NCBI GenBank assembly: GCA_963745075.1
Contig: CAVUWV010000024.1
Span: 256,001 to 320,000, forward strand
Direction: 5' to 3'
From: Candidatus Hydrogenedentota bacterium
Lineage (GTDB): Bacteria > Hydrogenedentota > Hydrogenedentia > Hydrogenedentales > SLHB01
DNA length: 64,000 nt
Part shown: positions 45,042 through 57,803 of the stretch, piece by piece
Layout: every line of letters begins with the position of its first letter
Numbering within the stretch: the stretch's first letter is position 1
The notes under the pieces: model-generated
The model's input: the letters and a program-made list of their open reading frames with translations, nothing else
Database searches by the model: none
Told to the model about the DNA's origin: nothing
Made by a program: the position numbers and the translations under genes

Positions 45042-46495
45042 TTAGACCACGTACGTGGATGCAGAGGTCGCGCCGCCGCGGCCGGTCCAGTTGGTGTGGA
45101 AGAACTCGCCGCGCGGTTTGTCGACTCGCTCATAGGTGTGCGCGCCGAAATAGTCGCGTTGCGCCTGCAACAGGTTGGCCGGCAGCCGTTCGCAACGGTA
45201 GCCGTCGAAATAGGCCAGCGCGGAACTGATGGCCGGTGCGGGAATGCCCATATTCACCGCGGTCGACACGACCCGCCGCCACGCTGCCTGGGCCTTGGAC
45301 ACGGCGTCCTGGAAGAACGGATCGAGCAGCAGGTTGACCAGGTCGTGGTTATCGTCGAAGGCTTCTTTGATCTTGCCCAGGAAAGCCGACCGGATGATGC
45401 AGCCGCCGCGCCACATCAGTGCGATACCGCCGTAGTTCAGGTTCCAGCCGTATTCCGCCGCGGCCGCGCGCATAAGCTGGTAGCCCTGCGCGTAACTCAC
45501 GATCTTCGACGCGTAGAGCGCCTGGCGAAGGTCGTCGACAAACGCTTTCTTGTCGCCGTCAAAGGCGCTCACCTGCCCCTTGAGGTGTTTGGCCGCTTCG
45601 ACGCGCTCATCCTTGATCGCGGAGAGACAACGCGCGAACACGGCCTCGCCGATCAGCGTGAGCGGTTGTCCCGAGTCCAGCGCCGCCACGACGGTCCATT
45701 TGCCCGTACCTTTCTGGCCGGCGCGTGTCCAGAATCAGATCGACCACGGCATTGCCGTCGTCGTCCTTGTGCCCGAGGATGTCGCGGGTGATTTCGATGA
45801 GATACGAATCCAGTTCGCCCTCGTTCCATTCGGCGAAGACCTCGTGCATTTCCTCGTTCGACATGCCGAGGCCCTGCTTCATGAGCTGATAGGTCTCGCA
45901 GATCATCTGCATGTCGCCGTATTCGATGCCGTTGTGGACCATCTTGACGAAGTGGCCCGCACCGCCTTCGCCGACCCAGTCGCAGCACGGCGTCGCCGTC
46001 TTCGGTCTTCGCGGCGATCCCCTGGAAGATCGGCTTCACGTGCTCCCACGCCGCCGGCGAGCCGCCCGGCATGATGGATGGTCCCTTGAGGGCCCCTTCT
46101 TCGCCGCCGGAAACGCCCGTGCCGATGTAAAGCAGGCCCTTGCTTTCGCAGTACTTGGCCCGCCGGATCGTGTCCGGGAAGTGGCTGTTGCCGCCGTCGA
46201 TGATGATGTCGCCCTTCTCCAGGTGCGGCGCCAATTGCTCGATGAAATCGTCCACCGGTTGGCCCGCCTTGACGAGCATCATCACCTTCCGCGGGCGCTT
46301 CAGGCTGGCGCAAAGTTCCTCGATGCTGTGGCAACCCTTAAAATTCTTGCCCTTGCCGCGGCCCTCGATGAACTTGTCCACCTTCGCCACGGTTCGGTTG
46401 TATACCGCAACGGAGAAGCCCTTGCTCTCCATGTTCAACACCAAATTCTCGCCCATGACGGCGAGGCCGATGAGTCCAATATCCATTTCTGCCAT
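45042..46495 (-). CDS. gnd: NADP-dependent 6-phosphogluconate dehydrogenase (frameshifts near 45990 and 45720)
   Basis: [58 protein letters not shown]. Confidence 0.93.
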
Positions 46496-46642
46496 GAGTA
46501 GCAATCTCCTTAACAGGTCTGTGTACCGAATTCCCCCAACGCATGCATTTCCCGCGTGTCGGATTCTCGAATGCCCGCACCGGACGTGGAGGAAACGCAC
46601 AATGAGCCGATTGTACTACAAAACGGGGGGCAGAACGAAGGG

Positions 46643-49284: not shown

Positions 49285-49399
49285 AGGGACCGCAGCTTGG
49301 TGAGATACGAGCGACGTTGCCCCGGCCCTTGAACCCCGGCAAGTGTTTTGCTTGAATGGGCGGACGCACGGGGGCCGTCAGCACCAAGGGAGCCAATAC

Positions 49400-51515
49400 G
49401 TGGAGAACACCGTAAAGAATCCGTTGTGGAAAGTGTCGAGCATTTTTCTTATCGCGCTGTCGCTGTCGATGGGGTGGGGGATACGCGGCAATTACGGGCA
49501 CGAGTCCGGCGCGTGGATTCCCGGCGCACTCGCGGCGATGGCGATCGCGATCTTGTCGCAGCGCGAGGACTGGCGGCAGCGGGTTCATTACTTTGCGCTG
49601 TTCGGCGGGCTCGGGCTCGGGTTCGGCGGTTCCATCTCGTACATGTATGCCCTGTCCTTTTCGAGTTCCGGCTATCTGCCGTCCGCGTGGTATGGGTACA
49701 TGCTGGTCTTCTTCGAAGGTGCGCTGTGGTGCGGGCTCGGCGGCGCAGGGATGGCCCTGGCCGCCACCGCGAAGCGCGACCGGCTCACGGCGCTCATCGT
49801 GCCCCATGTGTTTTGCTATTGCCGCGCTGATTCTGCACAAATTGATCGAAGAGCCCGTCGCGGCGTTTCTGAATCCGCCCGCGGCGGAAGTGATGGACGC
49901 CACCTGGCACCGGCAGAAGAGTCCGCTCTACTGGTTCGACGCGGACTGGTTCTCGGCGTTGATGGTGTTCTTGGGCGTGTGCCTTTACGACCTGTGGAAC
50001 CGTCGACGGGATGCCCGATATGCCATGTCGGCGCTGCTGCTGGTGGCATTTCTCGCGGGCGGCGCACTGGTCGGCTGGGGCGTGCAACAGGGCGTGCGCG
50101 CCGCGGGGATGGAATCGCAGGTCAGCAGCTTCTTGGATGTTCCTCTCGCCGACCCCAGCGCCATCAACCCCACGACGGGCATCGCCTACGGCGATGAGAT
50201 CAACGAGCGCACGGGTGAGCCCTGGGGTTTGGACAACTTCCTGACGAACTGGCCGCAACCCTTCAGCGACTATTCCCAACACGTCGGCTGGGGCGTCGGA
50301 CTTTTCCTGGGGTGGATGCTGTACTTCCTCAACTTCGGGAAGTGGCGCAACGACAGCGGGCTGTTCCTGTACATGTCCATGGGGTGGATGGTGGGCTTCA
50401 TGCTGTTCCCCGTCTTCGGGACGGTCGTGCTCTACCACGTGGGCGTGGCCCTCAAGAACGCGGGCCACGACGTGTACGTGCCGCTCTTCGGCGGGTTCCG
50501 GTTCATGCCGCCCCGGAGCGACGACTGGGCGGGGATTCTGGGCGTGTTCGTTGGCGCCATTATTTACTGCGCGCGCAAGGGGTGGAAACCCGTCGCGCTT
50601 GGCGCGAGCCTCAGCGGGCTCATCGGCGGCATCATGTTTGCCTCGATGAAATTTTTCCGGTTCCTCCTGCTCATTCCGGGCAACAAGTGGCTTCACGAAG
50701 GTACCGTGCCGTCGGACTGGGCCTTCTACCAGAGCGCAAACTGGCACAGCTTCCTCGAACAATCCCAGGGCTTCGGCCACGGCATCGCCTTCGCCGTCAC
50801 GGCGGCGGTGTTGTGGTCCCGCGTGAAGGTCCATCGCGACGAGCCCCGCGTACGGCTCTGGACTGAACCCTTCGCGGTCGGGTTCGTCGTGCTGTTCATG
50901 ACCTACGCAAACATCTACAAGAACGTAGCGGAGTGGACCGGCGGCCAGACGAAGGTCGTGCCTGAATCCATGAGGCCGCCGCTGATCGCGGAACTCTTCA
51001 CTGGCCCGAACCATCCGATTACCTTGAGCGCGCTGACCTGGTTCAACCTCGCGTGGATCGCGGCGGGACTGGCCTTGATCGGGCTCATGATCGTTCACCT
51101 GCGCGGCCGGCGCGTCGAGATGCTGCCGTCCAGTTGGGTCGGGCGCGGCCAACTCATGTACGTGCTCGTGCTGTGGATCATGGTCCTCGGCAATTTCGAA
51201 CGTGCACTGCCCAACTTCGACGAAAATCGTCTGATTACCGAATGGGTGATCCTGATCAACGCGTGCATCGCCACCTTCCTGCTCGGATACCTCCCGAAAC
51301 CGACCGTGGAACTGAACGTCGAAGAGCCGGCGCCGTTTCGTCCCGGCCTCGCCCGCGTGTGGGCCATCGGTCTGCCCGTCGCTTTCGTCCTCATGACCCT
51401 GTACACCTTCGCCGAGCGCGGTGTCCTCGGCAGCACGCCCGTCTATCAGGACCGCTTCGGCCCCAACGCCGAGTGGGCCATCAAACCCATTCTGAAGGAG
51501 GGGAAGCATCGGTAA
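49400..51515 (+). CDS. Polytopic membrane protein of unknown function (frameshift near 49810)
   Basis: MGWGIRGNYGHESGA N-terminus, NWHSFLEQSQG, many TM helices. Confidence 0.75.
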
Positions 51516-51557: not shown

Positions 51558-51609
51558 GCAGGAGAGTGAAGGGTGAAGACGTGCGTTTCGGTCGGGCTGG
51601 GGCGGCTCA

Positions 51610-51730
51610 GTGGGGCACGGGCGTCTCGCCCGTGGAGGGGGTCGAGTCGTAACGGCGGCTGGCGATGGGCTGTGTAATGGATCAAGACTGGGGAGGGGTA
51701 AAGAGCCAACGGGCGAGACGCCCGTTCCCC
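51610..51730. repeat. Inverted pair of REP-like palindromes
   Basis: GTGGGGCACGGGCGTCTCGCCCGTG (51610-51634) and AACGGGCGAGACGCCCGTTCCCC (51708-51730). Confidence 0.8.
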
Positions 51731-51892
51731 GTTGAGCCCGCCCTCCCTGGAAACCCACAGCGCGGCGGTTGGAATTGCGTGACATCAACTTCGCGAAGTA
51801 GATTCAGCGTGGAGGCGACGCGCGGGGCCATGTAATTTCAGTTTCCTGTGGCGTTTTGCAGTGGTGCGATTCAATGGATGCATGAGGTGGTG

Positions 51893-52996
51893 ATGCGAAG
51901 TTTCTTCCTTGCGCTTGCTTTGGCGATCCCGGTTGGCACATTCGGTCAAGGACCCCCCGTACCGGAGGACCGGATCGTATCGTGGATGCAGGAACTCAAA
52001 CCGTTGCCGAAGATCCATTACTCATGGCCGCTTCCCTACGAAACGATTTCTGACGACGTGTTGTTCGAGTACGTACGTTTGACCCACGCGTCGTCGCTCA
52101 GTGGCGAGTGGAGCAATCAAGAGGCGATCGATCGGGCGGTTGCGGTTTGTGGCCGGGTGAACGCCACCAAGCCGGAGATCCCGGCAACCATCGGCGTGAA
52201 CTATTCGGTCTGGCACAGGCGTTTTGGCAAGGAGTTGCCACCGACCGATACCGGGCCAACCTGCGAGGCGGAACTCGATCACCTGCGAACGCGCATGGAA
52301 GCCATTCGGGACGGGGTGGCGGAAGCGATCGAGAAGCATCAGGTCAACGTGACGGTCAGCGCCATCCTGTTCGACTCGGAACGGTTCCATACGAAGAAAG
52401 ACGATGCGCAGTGGAACGCGGCGATCACACAGAAATACAATGCGGCCTACGAGGTTGTTCGTGATGTTTTCCCCGAGGTGCGCGTCGAATGGTATGCACG
52501 CGGAGCCGTCCAGCCGGGGGCCTCGGCCACCGGCTGGAGCGAGTCAAAGTATTTCACGCTGGACGAAAAGGGGGAGTCCTTTGGCTGCTCGCTGTACGAG
52601 GTGCCGGAGATCGGATACACGCGGGCGATCTTTCGCCGGACCGCTGAGAACGCAGCACGGCATGGCTGTGAGGAGGTGACGCCGTGGATTGCGTTGGCTT
52701 CCGGGTATCGGCGTCAGACGGACCAGTATGATAAATGGTCGATCGATTGGAATTACGACCTCATTTACTCCTGGCAACTTGGGCGGGAACTGAATAATTC
52801 GTGGTTCGGAGTGCCCGAACGGGCCGAGCGCTTCGCGCCGTGGAACAAGGCGACGATTGCGGTCTTCTATCCCGAGCCGTTTGGCCGGTCGCCGCACTGG
52901 GGGCAGCACTTCGTCGCGTACGTCCGTGGCGCGAACGGAATCAAGGAACTGCCGGAAGAAAACGTGTCCGCAGATGACGCAGATTCTCAGAGTTGA
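51893..52996 (+). CDS. Secreted hypothetical protein (possible glycoside-hydrolase-like barrel)
   Basis: GAGG RBS, signal peptide, aromatic-rich sequence, ILFDSE motif. Confidence 0.65.
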   Translation: MRSFFLALALAIPVGTFGQGPPVPEDRIVSWMQELKPLPKIHYSWPLPYETISDDVLFEYVRLTHASSLSGEWSNQEAIDRAVAVCGRVNATKPEIPATIGVNYSVWHRRFGKELPPTDTGPTCEAELDHLRTRMEAIRDGVAEAIEKHQVNVTVSAILFDSERFHTKKDDAQWNAAITQKYNAAYEVVRDVFPEVRVEWYARGAVQPGASATGWSESKYFTLDEKGESFGCSLYEVPEIGYTRAIFRRTAENAARHGCEEVTPWIALASGYRRQTDQYDKWSIDWNYDLIYSWQLGRELNNSWFGVPERAERFAPWNKATIAVFYPEPFGRSPHWGQHFVAYVRGANGIKELPEENVSADDADSQS

Positions 52997-53129
52997 ACAC
53001 AAGAGCTTAGCGGTCCACCGATTGCACTGATCCACAGCGATTTCAAGATAGCCTCGGACAGAAGACCGCGTGACCAGTATAGACGCCATATGTTCCTCTG
53101 CGTCCATTCCAAAGCATGATATGATGCTC

Positions 53130-53224
53130 TGCGAATACGGGTCTTATGCCCGCGTTGCCGGAGGGGTCTCTTGCCGCAATCGTGCGGCTCAAGGGTGTTA
53201 TCAAGAAACCAGATAACCGTTGTT
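53130..53224 (+). other. attI-like leader, copy A
   Basis: 67 of 95 positions identical (one gap, hand alignment) to 54054-54147; both end at TTGTT just before a cassette-like gene. Confidence 0.55.
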
Positions 53225-53241
53225 CGGTGGGGGAAACGACA

Positions 53242-53700
53242 ATGGAACCACGAATCAGCATCATTACTCTGGGCGTCAATAGCATGCCGGTGTCGATCCG
53301 ATTCTACCGTGACGGGCTCGGATTCCCGACCGATGCGACGGACGACCGGAACTGGGCGATTTTCCGTACCAATGGAACGCGTCTCGCGCTTTACCCGAAG
53401 GCTGAACTCGCAAAGGACAGCGGCCCGGACACCACCCCTGCGGGCGGATTCTGCGGGATCACGCTGGCGCACAACGTCTCGAGTCGGGAGGACGTGGACA
53501 GGATCATTGAGCAGGCCGTCGCCGCCGGCGCCAGCCGGCTGAAGACTCCATCCGAAACGGAATGGGGGGGATACAGCGGGTATTTTGCCGATCCCGACGG
53601 ATATCTTTGGGAGGTCGCCTGGGGCGATGTTTGGGAGTATGACGAGAACGGAACCCTCTGGGGTGGATCACTGGGACCCAAACCATCACCGAACAAGTGA
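53242..53700 (+). CDS. VOC/glyoxalase family protein (gene-cassette ORF)
   Basis: ISIITLGV, FYRDGLG, ITLAHNV, WGGYSGYFADPDGYLWEVAW. Confidence 0.92.
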   Translation: MEPRISIITLGVNSMPVSIRFYRDGLGFPTDATDDRNWAIFRTNGTRLALYPKAELAKDSGPDTTPAGGFCGITLAHNVSSREDVDRIIEQAVAAGASRLKTPSETEWGGYSGYFADPDGYLWEVAWGDVWEYDENGTLWGGSLGPKPSPNK

Positions 53701-53752
53701 GTCCACGTTTTTTGTCGCCGACGCGCCAAGACCGTGATTCATGACATTCGCC
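53688..53752 (+). mobile_element. Integron attC site with mutated R' box
   Basis: R'' ACCGAAC, 5 nt, L'' AGTCCACG, centre, L' CGTGATT, 6 nt, R' ATTCGCC; R'' is the exact complement of GTTCGGT at 53222-53228. Confidence 0.75.
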
Positions 53753-53802
53753 GCGCAGAAAGGAGGCATCCCAACCGAGAAGTGCCTTCCGCTCTTCTGA
53801 TT

Positions 53803-53886
53803 GATTTGCAATTCAGATATTCGGGGCTTCGGGTTGCACGCCGCGGTCAAATTCCAAATCCGAATCACGAAATCCGAAACAAATCC
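53803..53886. repeat. Degenerate heptamer arrays (AAATCCG-like and complement)
   Basis: gatttgcaattcagatattcggggcttcgggtt and aaattccaaatccgaatcacgaaatccgaaacaaatcc. Confidence 0.55.
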
Positions 53887-53993
53887 GGATGGCCGAGAGG
53901 AGAAGGACCGAAACGTGGTATCGTGAATTTCCGAGCATGCACGCACGGTCTCGGCGGTGCAATGCAGCCTGGGTACGAGCGACCAGAAGCTGC

Positions 53994-54031
53994 GATTTCG
54001 ATCCCGATAGCGATCCCGATTTGGATGGGAA
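53994..54031 (+). repeat. Solo copy of the CGATNN hexamer arm
   Basis: GATTTCGATCCCGATAGCGATCCCGATTT identical to 54601-54629, with GATGGGAA downstream in both copies. Confidence 0.85.
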
Positions 54032-54053
54032 AGCGGAGGATGATTGAACATTT

Positions 54054-54147
54054 TGCGCATACAGGCTTTCGGTCAACATTGCCGGAGGGGCTGGTGCTGC
54101 GATCACGGGGCCTGAAGGTGTTATGATGAATCCCGAAAACAGTTGTT
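54054..54147 (+). other. attI-like leader, copy B
   Basis: Homologous to 53130-53224; ends GGTGTTATGATGAATCCCGAAAACAGTTGTT. Confidence 0.55.
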
Positions 54148-54156
54148 GGGGCTGAA

Positions 54157-54640
54157 CATCGAAATCGAAATCGGGATCGCTATCGGGATCGAAGAAATAT
54201 GGGACTTGGACACGAAAAGCTTGACGTTTACCGGCTTTCCATTGGCTACGTGGCGTGGGTCTACGAGAAGGCCGACAGCCTGAACGGCGTTCATCGAGCG
54301 GCAAGGGACCAATGGCTGCGTGCCAGTCAGTCGATCCCGTTGAACATCGCCGAAGGCAACGGCAAGACGGCCGCCGCGGATCGGCGGAGGTATTTCGAGA
54401 TTGCGCGAGGCTCGGCATTGGAGTGCGCGGCGATTCAGGATGTTCTGGTTGTCGGCAAGGCCCTGGATAACGTCGAGAGCCAAAGCCGCAAGGGGGAATT
54501 GGATCGTATGGCCGCAATGCTCAGCCGGCTGGGCGGAAGGGGCTACCAAGTCGGCGAGGAGATTGCCACGTACGGAAGCAGCGAAGACGCGTTCGATGCT
54601 GATTTCGATCCCGATAGCGATCCCGATTTCGATTTAGATG
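54157..54640. repeat. 37-bp inverted repeat arms bracketing the four-helix-bundle gene
   Basis: 54157-54193 is the reverse complement of 54604-54640 with one mismatch. Confidence 0.9.
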
Positions 54641-54678
54641 GGAAGGAATCCCAACATAGCGGATGCGCTGGACGCTGA
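54199..54678 (+). CDS. Four helix bundle protein (23S rRNA IVP / bAvd-like family)
   Basis: HEKLDVY, DQWLRASQSIPLNIAEG, FEIARGSALEC. Confidence 0.92.
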   Translation: MGLGHEKLDVYRLSIGYVAWVYEKADSLNGVHRAARDQWLRASQSIPLNIAEGNGKTAAADRRRYFEIARGSALECAAIQDVLVVGKALDNVESQSRKGELDRMAAMLSRLGGRGYQVGEEIATYGSSEDAFDADFDPDSDPDFDLDGKESQHSGCAGR

Positions 54679-54709
54679 TTCTTCGCGTCAGCGATCCTTG
54701 TCGCTGCCA
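54649..54709 (+). mobile_element. Integron attC site with mutated R' box
   Basis: R'' TCCCAAC, 6 nt, L'' GATGCGCT, GACGC/GCGTC stem, L' AGCGATC, 6 nt, R' GCTGCCA; CCCAACA complements TGTTGGG at 54144-54150. Confidence 0.7.
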
Positions 54710-54825
54710 AATTTGCCATTCCCTCCCCCTGCATGCTAGGCTATCGTGTTTGTTTTCAACGCCCAAGCATTCCAACACACCTCCTACCGGGATCGATGGA
54801 AGTAGGGTAGAAAGGGGTTTCAATT

Positions 54826-55581
54826 TTGAGAAGGCCGCTCGTAGCTGGAAACTGGAAGATGAACCACCTCGTGGGGACGGCGGTGGAGACTACCAACGCG
54901 CTGAAAGCGTTGGTGGCGGATGTGGATTCGGTGGACATCGTGATTTGCCCGGTGTTTACGGCGCTGGACGCGGTCGGGAAGGCGGTGGCCGGGTCGAATA
55001 TCCAACTCGGCGCGCAGAATTGCTATTTCAAGGAAAGCGGCGCGTATACGGGCGAGCTTTCGCCGCAGATGTTGCAGGACGTGGGGTGCACGTGGACCAT
55101 TATCGGCCACAGCGAACGCCGGCAATACTTCGGTGAAACCGATGACGTTCTTAATCAAAAATTAAAGTTTGCGCTGGGTGCGGGGCTCAAGGTCATGTTC
55201 TGCATCGGCGAGACGTTGGAAGAGCGCGAAGGCGGCAAGATGAACGACGTGCTCATCCGCCAGGTGACCAACGGATTGCAGGGCTTGGCGGAATCGGATT
55301 TCGCGAACATTTCCATCGCCTACGAGCCGGTGTGGGCCATCGGCACGGGCGTGACCGCTTCGCCGGAGCAGGCCCAGGAGGCCCACGCCTTCGTGCGCGG
55401 GTTGGTCAAGGATCAGTTTGGTGCAACCGTCGCGGACGGTTTGCGGATACAATATGGTGGCAGCGTCAAACCGGACAACGCCGCGGAACTCATGGCGAAG
55501 CCCGACGTGGACGGTTCCCTCGTCGGCGGCGCCGCCCTCAAGGCGGAAAGCTTCGCGGGTATCGTGAAGGCGTCGATCTAG
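54826..55581 (+). CDS. tpiA: Triosephosphate isomerase
   Basis: AGNWKMN, GHSERR, AYEPVWAIGTG, YGGSVK, LVGGA. Confidence 0.97.
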   Translation: MRRPLVAGNWKMNHLVGTAVETTNALKALVADVDSVDIVICPVFTALDAVGKAVAGSNIQLGAQNCYFKESGAYTGELSPQMLQDVGCTWTIIGHSERRQYFGETDDVLNQKLKFALGAGLKVMFCIGETLEEREGGKMNDVLIRQVTNGLQGLAESDFANISIAYEPVWAIGTGVTASPEQAQEAHAFVRGLVKDQFGATVADGLRIQYGGSVKPDNAAELMAKPDVDGSLVGGAALKAESFAGIVKASI

Positions 55582-55597
55582 GAGGCTGATAGCAGCG

Positions 55598-56206
55598 ATG
55601 CTGAATCTCATCTTTTCGTGGAATACCTTGTGGGTCATCATGTGGGCCCTTTATTTGCCGGCGTCGATCGGCCTGATTATCATCGTGCTTCTCCAGAAGG
55701 GGAAAAGCAGCGGGTTCGCGGGCGCCTTCGGTGTCGGCACGGGATCGGAAACCGTGTTCGGACCCCGCGCGCGCAAGAGTCTGCCGGTGAAAATGACCTA
55801 CGTCATGGCGGGCTTGTTCATGTTCTTGGCGATGAGCATGTCGTTGGTGGCCGGTCGCGTACACCGCGGTGTCGCGCCCGGAGAGGTGAAAGTCAGCGAG
55901 ACGGATACGGCGAACGACATCTACAACGATCTGCTGGATGGCACCTCCTCTACGGAAGCGCCGGCGGAGTCGACGAGTACCACGCCGGAAACGGCCGGTG
56001 GCATGGGCGCTGCGGAGACGACGCCCGAGAGTGCCCCGCCGATGGAGTCAACGGGTGAGGCAAGCCCGGAACAAGCCGCGACCCCGGAGGCGTCGTCTGA
56101 GAGCACAGCGCCAGCGGAAGCTCCGGCCAAGGCGGCCCCGGGGGAACCGGCGCCTTCCGAGCCCAGTGCCGCCTCTGGCGATGACGGCGCCAAGAGCGCC
56201 AACTAA
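55598..56206 (+). CDS. secG: Preprotein translocase subunit SecG with long acidic tail
   Basis: VLLQKGK.SG.AGAFG, second TM after K.T; follows tpiA. Confidence 0.88.
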   Translation: MLNLIFSWNTLWVIMWALYLPASIGLIIIVLLQKGKSSGFAGAFGVGTGSETVFGPRARKSLPVKMTYVMAGLFMFLAMSMSLVAGRVHRGVAPGEVKVSETDTANDIYNDLLDGTSSTEAPAESTSTTPETAGGMGAAETTPESAPPMESTGEASPEQAATPEASSESTAPAEAPAKAAPGEPAPSEPSAASGDDGAKSAN

Positions 56207-56231
56207 GTTATCGCATTTTATGTCATTAGTT

Positions 56232-56271
56232 CCGGCCCAAGGCGCACACTGGCTTTGGGCCGGTTGTTTTT
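56232..56271 (+). terminator. Probable Rho-independent terminator
   Basis: CCGGCCCAAGGC...GCTTTGGGCCGG followed by a T-rich tract. Confidence 0.7.
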
Positions 56272-56326
56272 CATCTATATGAGGTTGACGAAAGTGCCGG
56301 TGAGCGTGAGAAATCCCGAGAAATCG

Positions 56327-56483
56327 ACATCCCCCTTGATCCCCCTTCAAAGGGGGAGGGGGCCGGCCGAGTTTATTGGAGTTTTTGGGAGTGCTGAGCC
56401 AGGCCTGGATTCTCTGTGGTGCGCTTCAAACGGAGGTCCGACACTTGTCGGTTCCCCCTTTGGAGGGGGATCAAGGGGGATGT
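56327..56483. repeat. Inverted pair of 31-bp CCCCCTT-type repeats
   Basis: ACATCCCCCTTGATCCCCCTTCAAAGGGGGA and its reverse complement (one mismatch) at 56453-56483. Confidence 0.85.
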
Positions 56484-56549
56484 TTTTAAGTTCCCCTCAC
56501 CAGTCGCAACCTGAGTCCTCACGACCTTCGGGGGAAGGAGCGCGCGTCC

Positions 56550-57803
56550 GTGGATAGGATTCTGATTCGGGGCGGACGACCGTTGCGTGGCTCGGTGCAG
56601 GTGCGCGGGGCCAAGAATTCCGCTTTGCCACTGATGGCTGCATCCATCCTCGCGGAAGAGGCCTGCACGCTTCACAACATTCCGTGCCTCCACGACGTGT
56701 TCACGATGGACAAGCTTCTGTCGTCCTTCGGGGCGAAGATCGAGTTCACCGGCCGCTACATGACCATCGACGCGTCCACCCTCGAATCTTGCGTCGCCCA
56801 TTACGATCTCGTCCGCAAGATGCGCGCGTCTTTTTTTGTACTGGGACCCTTGCTTGGGCGCTTCGGCAAGGCCCGGGTTTCCTTGCCCGGCGGTTGCGCT
56901 ATCGGCACACGTCCCGTTGATATCCATCTCAAAGGATTGGAGGCGCTCGGCGCGTCGATTGCCATCGAAGACGGTTACGTGTCCGCCGAGGGGACGCTGA
57001 AAGGCACGGACTACTCGCTCGACTTTCCCAGCGTGGGCGCGACGGAGAACCTGATGATGGCCGCGAGCCGCGCCCGCGGGGTCACGCGATTGAACAACGT
57101 GGCGCGGGAACCCGAAATAACCGACCTCGCCCATTTCCTCAACGCCATGGGCGCGCAGATTTCCGGCGCGGGCACGGACCTGATTACGATTGTCGGCGTG
57201 GACGCCCTCGGCGGCACGGAACACGTGGTCATTCCGGACCGCATCGAAACCGGCACCTTCCTGATCGCGGGTCTTGCGACCGGCGGAGACGTGACGGTCA
57301 TGAACGCCAATCCCGATCATCTGCCGACCTTTTTGAACAAGCTCCGGGAGGCCGGCGGCGACGTGGAGGTCCACGGTACGCGCATCCGGGTTACCGGCAA
57401 AAGCGGTCTCAAGGGCACTGACGTGACCACGCAGCCATTCCCGGGGTTTCCGACTGATTTGCAGGCCCAGATGATGTCCATGCTTTGCGTGGCCGAAGGG
57501 GTCAGCATCATCCGGGAATCGGTGTTCGAGAATCGCTTTATGCAGGTGGCCGAATTGATTCGGATGGGGGCTGAGATCGATCTCGACGGCAACGCTGCGA
57601 TCGTACGCGGCGTGAATGCGCTTAGCGGCGCCCCGGTGATGGCGTCCGACCTGCGGGCGAGCGCGGCGTTGGTCGTTGCGGGTCTCGCAGCCGCCAAGGG
57701 GGAGACCTCCATCGCGCGGGTTTACCATATCGACCGCGGCTACGAACGGATTGAAGAGCGCCTCGCCAGCATCGGCGCCGATATCGAACGCGTCCGCGAC
57801 TGA
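56550..57803 (+). CDS. murA: UDP-N-acetylglucosamine 1-carboxyvinyltransferase
   Basis: GAKNSALP, MRAS, LPGGCAIGTRP, SVGATEN, PGFPTDLQ, DLRA, IDRGY. Confidence 0.97.
   Translation: MDRILIRGGRPLRGSVQVRGAKNSALPLMAASILAEEACTLHNIPCLHDVFTMDKLLSSFGAKIEFTGRYMTIDASTLESCVAHYDLVRKMRASFFVLGPLLGRFGKARVSLPGGCAIGTRPVDIHLKGLEALGASIAIEDGYVSAEGTLKGTDYSLDFPSVGATENLMMAASRARGVTRLNNVAREPEITDLAHFLNAMGAQISGAGTDLITIVGVDALGGTEHVVIPDRIETGTFLIAGLATGGDVTVMNANPDHLPTFLNKLREAGGDVEVHGTRIRVTGKSGLKGTDVTTQPFPGFPTDLQAQMMSMLCVAEGVSIIRESVFENRFMQVAELIRMGAEIDLDGNAAIVRGVNALSGAPVMASDLRASAALVVAGLAAAKGETSIARVYHIDRGYERIEERLASIGADIERVRD

Follow-up and report, generated by a model that had tools for sequence, protein, structure and literature searches.

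In the window, by which we mean the whole 64-kb stretch of DNA analysed here, a small four-helix-bundle gene lies between two long inverted arms, and this arm–gene–arm unit fills an integron gene cassette upstream of the host gene tpiA. The features that precede the cassette on the same strand are two attI-type platforms, a glyoxalase-family gene, an unrelated dispersed repeat element and an orphan third arm (Table 1; all coordinates are positions within the window).

Table 1. Features of the cassette locus, in order of position
Feature	Position	Strand	Remarks
attI-type platform A, without integrase gene	53078..53222	+	Crossover G^TT at 53222/53223; six-copy alignment
Glyoxalase/VOC-family gene	53242..53700	+	PF00903, 63.3 bits; first cassette at platform A
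Unrelated dispersed heptamer-type repeat element	53752..53929	+	About 35 genome matches elsewhere
Arm U, orphan R-type array outside the cassette	53994..54026	+	Element profile aligns here only over its R-arm part (model positions 448-488)
attI-type platform B, 5'-truncated	54033..54145	+	Final G forms the crossover's left side; 73% match to the platform of genome G014
Integron gene cassette, 558 nt, with arm–gene–arm unit	54146..54703	+	attI-type left junction, attC right junction
Arm L	54157-54193	+	Six ATCG-core hexamers in the 5' leader
Four-helix-bundle gene, 159 aa	54199..54678	+	PF05635, TIGR02436; helices at residues 4-111, then acidic low-confidence tail
Arm R	54604-54640	+	CGATNN array (from 54594), in frame as D-x-D tail; complement of L
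attC with two lesions	54650..54709	+	Crossover after 54703
tpiA, host gene downstream of the insertion	54826..55581	+	PF00121, 326.8 bits

The gene had been assigned to the IVP/bAvd-like four-helix-bundle family from its sequence alone, and it passes the thresholds of both family profiles, PF05635 (66.8 bits; cut-off 33.8) and TIGR02436 (60.4 bits; cut-off 24). The predicted model has helices at residues 4–25, 30–55, 59–85 and 91–111, followed by a C-terminal tail with 13 acidic versus 2 basic residues. It matched Xcc0516 (2GSC; sequence E 5.5e-8, fold E 2.5e-5, rmsd 1.7), the BT_0352 pentamer (2RLD, by structure) and, weakly, Avd (4DWL, E 0.053, 11% identity; E 0.03–0.09 across the Avd structures 4DWL and 8UB7). 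Neither the model nor the structure comparison contained a nuclease or transposase fold. By analogy with the five-chain structures 2GSC and 2RLD, the protein is a putative homopentamer. The family occurs in 35 of 61 genomes of this order, with up to 10 genes per genome, and no match was found in plasmid and phage collections at E 1e-5. The gene is under purifying selection (dN/dS about 0.06): of 47 pairs between the window gene and relatives drawn from the best 80 of at least 513, the 26 that were unsaturated gave a median dN/dS of 0.057; synonymous sites are near saturation (median pS 0.74), and only two of those best 80 relatives are broken genes.

The arms lie where the sequence-only reading had placed them, and their relationship as reverse complements held up: L and R match over 37 nt at 97% complementarity, with 410 nt separating them. 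Five nucleotides separate L from the ATG at 54199, with no clear SD, and R, inside the ORF, does code for the D-x-D tail. Both arms are CGATNN arrays, and the core is enriched genome-wide, with 38 arrays of at least four units in this genome, whereas the 256 possible four-base cores have a median of 0. In the predicted RNA fold of 53980–54700, which takes in the gene and both arms, L pairs with R (z −4.86; 0 of 20 shuffles equally good), and the L:R pairing is predicted at −63.6 kcal/mol. There is no rRNA at the locus, as had been said: Rfam gave nothing at E ≤ 5 over 52900–56600 and nothing at the gathering score over the 64-kb window, and the neighbours are protein genes. A promoter scan of 52950–54900 found no sigma-70-type promoter.

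Flanking inverted arms are a conserved property of this family. We compared the best 80 of at least 513 confirmed loci in GTDB genomes; these reach 85%–89% identity, and their record titles, which can mislead for MAGs, span many phyla (loci L009 and L111 are the same DNA). With an inverted repeat scoring at least 30 as the criterion, arms were found at 59 of the 76 relatives with usable flanks, compared with 0 of 1075 control positions. For the wider family, 36 loci were examined, from which 8 without the motif and 3 with short flanks were dropped; arms were found at 21 of the remaining 25, compared with 0 of 345 controls, and were built from unrelated 6-, 7-, 8- and 9-nt units. Within this genome all four family genes have arms, each of another unit, so that across the family the pairing is conserved and the sequence is not. 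In only 36 of 76 relatives (best 80 of at least 513) did a relative's own arms outperform 90% of the foreign ones, suggesting that arms are matched at the level of the unit. A quick tree (118 columns, long branches, 47 of 99 branches open) grouped the 6-nt, 7/8-nt and 9-nt arm types separately. The placement of R is also recurrent. Across 82 rows (the best 80 relatives, the window gene and its paralogue L001), the R array lies inside the ORF in 58, after the stop in 18 and is missing in 6, and 56 of the 58 arrays within an ORF are read in the Asp/Glu frame. The surroundings of the copies differ: three copies in one genome (L014, L015, L017) have different upstream DNA, and among 144 flanks only 11 pairs share flanking genes, none of them with the window. 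Packaging in integrons likely explains the occurrence of close relatives at unrelated sites in many bacterial phyla.

The sequence-only reading had proposed a stem-loop-packaged selfish or regulatory element nested inside a gene cassette. A mobile unit of this kind is supported, and both junctions of an integron cassette are present, attI-type on the left and attC on the right. The attC is the only match to the attC rule within 53651–54800. Its inner boxes pair at 7/7 positions around an extrahelical G, and the cassette start GTTGGG at 54145 matches the inverse core CCCAAC at 54650; the arms are set in from the ends of the cassette by 11 nt and 63 nt. The site has two lesions, a left spacer of 6 nt instead of 5 nt and a core of GCT instead of GTT, which together likely render it inactive. 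In the genomes G003 and G004, which are free of the cassette, similarity to the region upstream of tpiA resumes exactly at the core, which reads G^TT there versus G^CT here. Among relatives (best 80 of at least 513), an attC with an intact GTT core follows R in 10 of 76, compared with 3 of 462 controls; the majority of relatives fail this strict rule. GTT-like cores stand upstream of L in 22 of 36 cases, a count without a control on which we do not rely. Inner-box pairing across relatives reached 55/84, a conservative count because a fixed spacer misregisters three rows; 3 of 2000 shuffles reach that level. One relative (L080) is the first cassette behind a 3' fragment of intI and another (L026) is placed between two attC sites. 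We also noted a tandem arrangement at L005 (positions 1–1500), where a full cassette is joined in tandem by one with two genes and by a copy of the first with an internal deletion, with gene decay inside the arms. Three DNA sequencing runs with small shares yielded fragments from other organisms only and no piece spanning the cassette.

The left junction belongs to a platform element of ∼170 nt, copies of which precede the glyoxalase gene at 53242 and, in truncated form, the arm unit. An alignment of six copies shows conservation up to G^TT and different genes beyond it. In genome G116, the element comes immediately after the stop codon of an intI in head-to-tail orientation, which identifies it as an attI region; integrases oriented towards their own array are described in the accessible part of 10.1101/030866, and this related integrase stands head-to-tail with its array in the same way. 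The platform element was found in 19 of 121 genomes of the order, and intI matches in only 6 of 121. The glyoxalase cassette has a degenerate attC-like end at ∼53689–53752 (by eye), whose inverse core CCGAAC matches the cassette start GTTCGG. Solo platforms without an integrase, each followed by a different first gene, recur in the window (53078–53226 and 54033–54147), at two other places in this genome (G000, contig positions C13:192431 and C31:46479) and at loci L123–L153. A promoter-like motif (TTGCCT, 17 nt, TATACT-like) was seen before an attI platform of this genome (C13, 192.3 kb) and before the four-helix-bundle cassettes L110 and L111. Elsewhere (L207; G025:C115:10400–15102), downstream of a head-to-tail intI come a 509-aa ORF, RT-like by eye, a four-helix-bundle gene with heptamer arms, a small two-gene pair resembling a toxin–antitoxin system and an orphan duplicate of the 5' arm.

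At the locus itself, no intI stands next to an attI, as it does in a complete integron. Neither this genome (89.7% complete) nor any of the four same-genus genomes scored has a TIGR02249 (IntI) match above the cut-off, and with no integrase in a genome that is ∼90% complete, the cassette is likely stranded. The left side is part of a larger replacement, in which about 3.2 kb from a membrane-protein gene to tpiA differ wholesale from G003 and G004. As a result, the right junction may record an insertion or a later attC-by-GTT deletion. The window holds further features. The membrane-protein gene (49343–51515) is split over two frames, compared with one 717-aa ORF in G003, and a gene resembling 6-phosphogluconate dehydrogenase (45042–46600, minus strand) runs over several frames, by assembly error or decay. 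The variable interval before tpiA contains two more repeated intergenic elements (51579–51738 and 52955–53048) and a 382-aa ORF (51848–52996) with no Pfam or NCBIfam match. A REP-like hairpin at 56327–56483, with 31-nt arms that are 97% complementary, has many copies here and in relatives.

Arms of this kind also occur without the gene. A genome-wide count of window-type arrays gave 31, comprising the one pair around the gene, 9 gene-less L–R hairpins and 11 solo arrays, and the genome's four arm types are all dispersed as arrays (29, 39, 32 and 6 matches). These observations raise the possibility that the arms act at the DNA level, with the protein binding or extruding the repeat hairpin and spreading gene-bearing and gene-less copies, much as RAYT does for REP elements. 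The clade of the protein on the quick tree tracks the repeat period, and among 61 genomes, of which 6 have long CGATNN arrays, the two with a close gene (this genome and G003) both hold many. We nevertheless regard this reading as rather unlikely. The enclosed protein lacks a nuclease or transposase fold, the arms sit within the cassette rather than at its ends, and G054 and G060 have abundant arrays and no close gene. Many of the gene-less copies belong to a ∼230-nt family with a loop and flanks of its own and no remnant of gene or attC. In 4 of 61 genomes there are arrays, frequently alongside repeats of other types, but no homologue at E ≤ 1e-20, which weakens a tight link between protein and repeat; a tie between gene and repeat is suggested across the 61 genomes, and the claim of dependence is weakened. 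The ∼230-nt composite, whose inner arms are of CGATNN type and whose palindromic loop and outer flanks are both conserved, is present in about 11 copies (among them C10:238469, C10:433288, C11:144380, C14:342267, C18:37500, C19:4500, C28:13950 and C28:39110 of this genome). That gene-less hairpins are internally deleted cassette copies is unsupported in this genome, given their separate loops and outer flanks.

Not all members of the family are in cassettes. By eye, neither of the paralogues L001 and L003 has an attC, indicating that integrons provide one route, used by a single clade, and did not give rise to the arms. L003 has both filled and empty sites, without sharp ends or target duplication, and its ORF runs past arm R, whereas L001 has no simple empty site, its flanks lying on different contigs in 5 of 5 relatives. 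The filled and empty sites of L003, with neither attC nor sharp ends, suggest that the family also moves by another route. We considered the arms as ends of a MITE or TIR transposon and rejected this, as they are internal and L003 lacks target duplications. A further candidate for such a route is an RNA-mobilised element, in which an Avd-like pentamer would bind the panhandle RNA and recruit an RT in trans, integron packaging coming later. In the available text of PMC6182149, RT activity requires Avd, which forms a pentamer and binds a segment of non-coding RNA, and PF05635 resembles this DGR accessory protein according to the part of PMC10053308 at hand. Several copies start a few bases after −10-like hexamers (by eye, without a control), and copies without attC turn up at new sites. 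We find this explanation distinctly improbable. As the sequence-only reading had stated, there is no RT at the locus, and the only RT match of the genome is a single frameshifted gene on another contig (C19), which we read as group II intron-like. A pair of DGR template and variable repeats was not found within 52000–57000, and L003 shows no target duplication at its empty sites.

Arm U formed the basis of a bolder proposal, that the three arms make an RNA or ssDNA switch controlling the gene. The upstream R-type copy does exist and pairs with L; its extent, given as 53994–54022, is slightly longer (53994–54026). U matches R over that whole extent and pairs with L over 53997–54026 (30 nt, 97%). 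The U:L pairing is stable and would form first during transcription, before R exists, and genome G005 likewise has an orphan arm upstream. On the other hand, L:R wins in the full sequence, with a predicted −63.6 kcal/mol versus −53.8 for U:L and 35.4 versus 0.7 expected pairs, and with either partner arm L is predicted to be paired and the start codon mostly unpaired, so access to the start codon would not change. U precedes platform B and is not part of the cassette; such arrays occur upstream of the gene in 9 of 70 relatives and in 4 of 36 of the close ones (best 80 of at least 513), at scattered distances of 46–422 nt rather than at a set spacing. Orphan arm duplicates are common debris, and gutted duplicates, too, adjoin other copies. 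The switch did not survive this comparison and is very improbable; U is probably the tail (3' end) of a sister copy. It is equally hard to credit that the arms are neutral slippage repeats whose complementarity is a by-product of cassette formation. Simple repeats do expand easily, and unit numbers vary widely among relatives with perfect register often lost, but complementary arms persist around genes near synonymous saturation and, in other clades, have been made anew from unrelated units.

The reading we prefer, and consider probable, is that a gene-in-hairpin unit, similar to a 23S IVS but outside rRNA, fills an integron cassette that was likely delivered by IntI and is now probably stranded. 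Mobility of the cassette by IntI, as argued from its anatomy and junctions, is very likely. A foreign or since-lost IntI would have recombined the attC with sites of attI type or with a plain GTT, and integrases are indeed described to insert cassettes at genomic GWT sites (10.1101/2022.09.11.507474, in the portion available). In the excised circle, R, attC and L would be contiguous, so that the arms would directly extend the attC stem; our circle model of the cassette is predicted to fold as one continuous stem, which could help or hinder recombination. In the transcript, L and R would close the mRNA as a 37-bp stem, likely cut by host RNase III and giving low expression. The corresponding Coxiella IVS, a 28-bp stem around an ORF, is cut by RNase III according to the accessible text of PMC4990558, and an RNase III gene is present in this genome, which together point to a cut and short-lived mRNA; by this analogy, it is reasonably likely that the arms act as an RNA stem. 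The Avd-like pentamer would likely bind nucleic acid, most plausibly the RNA of its own repeats. Given that Avd binds a non-coding RNA as a pentamer, we tentatively suggest binding of its own repeats as the most plausible function of the protein, with the acidic tail encoded by the arm as a possible competitor for binding, which is speculation.

Several parts of this picture are already in print, namely, the family, its location in rRNA IVSs, its likeness to Avd and its occurrence among protein genes, for example, in cas loci (from the available part of PMC3936711). Among the closest known systems is the ORF-bearing 23S rRNA IVS of Coxiella burnetii and Leptospira (S23p/23S_rRNA_IVP), which, as far as the same text of PMC4990558 describes it, likewise encloses a gene of this family within a long terminal stem and has a similar size and a sporadic, horizontal distribution, with a stem of 28 bp in Coxiella versus 37 bp here. 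The window unit differs in lying outside rRNA, in its stem of tandem hexamers, in having one arm over the coding tail and in being an integron cassette. Integron cassettes, including those of SALINs and CALINs and attG insertions, share the GTT left core, the single ORF, the paired inner boxes and extrahelical base of attC, the GTT-core junction and the lack of a nearby integrase, as given in the available portions of 10.1101/2022.09.11.507474 and 10.1101/030866. Unlike those, the window cassette has long internal inverted arms, an orphan, dispersed attI-type platform (19 of 121 genomes) and an attC with two lesions. The four-helix-bundle fold is shared with Avd (4DWL, 8UB7), Xcc0516 (2GSC) and BT_0352 (2RLD), but Avd is a weak match only, and the window gene has an acidic tail formed by arm R and no adjacent RT, template or variable repeat. 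REP/REPIN elements, MITEs and bacterial heptamer repeats resemble the arms as dispersed intergenic palindromes or short tandem arrays with a patchy distribution across taxa; the window arms differ from REP/REPIN elements and MITEs in being internal, with no transposase encoded and an enclosed protein that by structure is not an HUH transposase. Heptamer arrays of TAACTGA were reported as unexplained in PMC4679880, and the accessible text of that report does not link them to the PF05635 family. In the accessible literature searched, we found no description of repeat-built arms around genes of the family, nor of integron cassettes that carry them.

A broader reading, speculative and on balance unlikely, would make these units a cross-phylum selfish class in which an Avd-like pentamer recognises a clade-specific repeat. 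The 23S IVSs would then be copies that landed in rRNA, and the hexamer clade would have captured an attC, its arms lengthening the attC stem of the circle and raising its own recombination. If this is true, the cassette of the hexamer clade would further its own passage through integrons. Genes of the 23S_rRNA_IVP family are common, and structures of their products have been solved, but no function is assigned to them; the present locus offers a concrete, testable route for one of its clades, with the integron route backed by exact junctions and by relatives free of the cassette. At 558 nt, the unit makes a small test system for the effect of arm pairing on RNA decay, attC recombination or protein binding.
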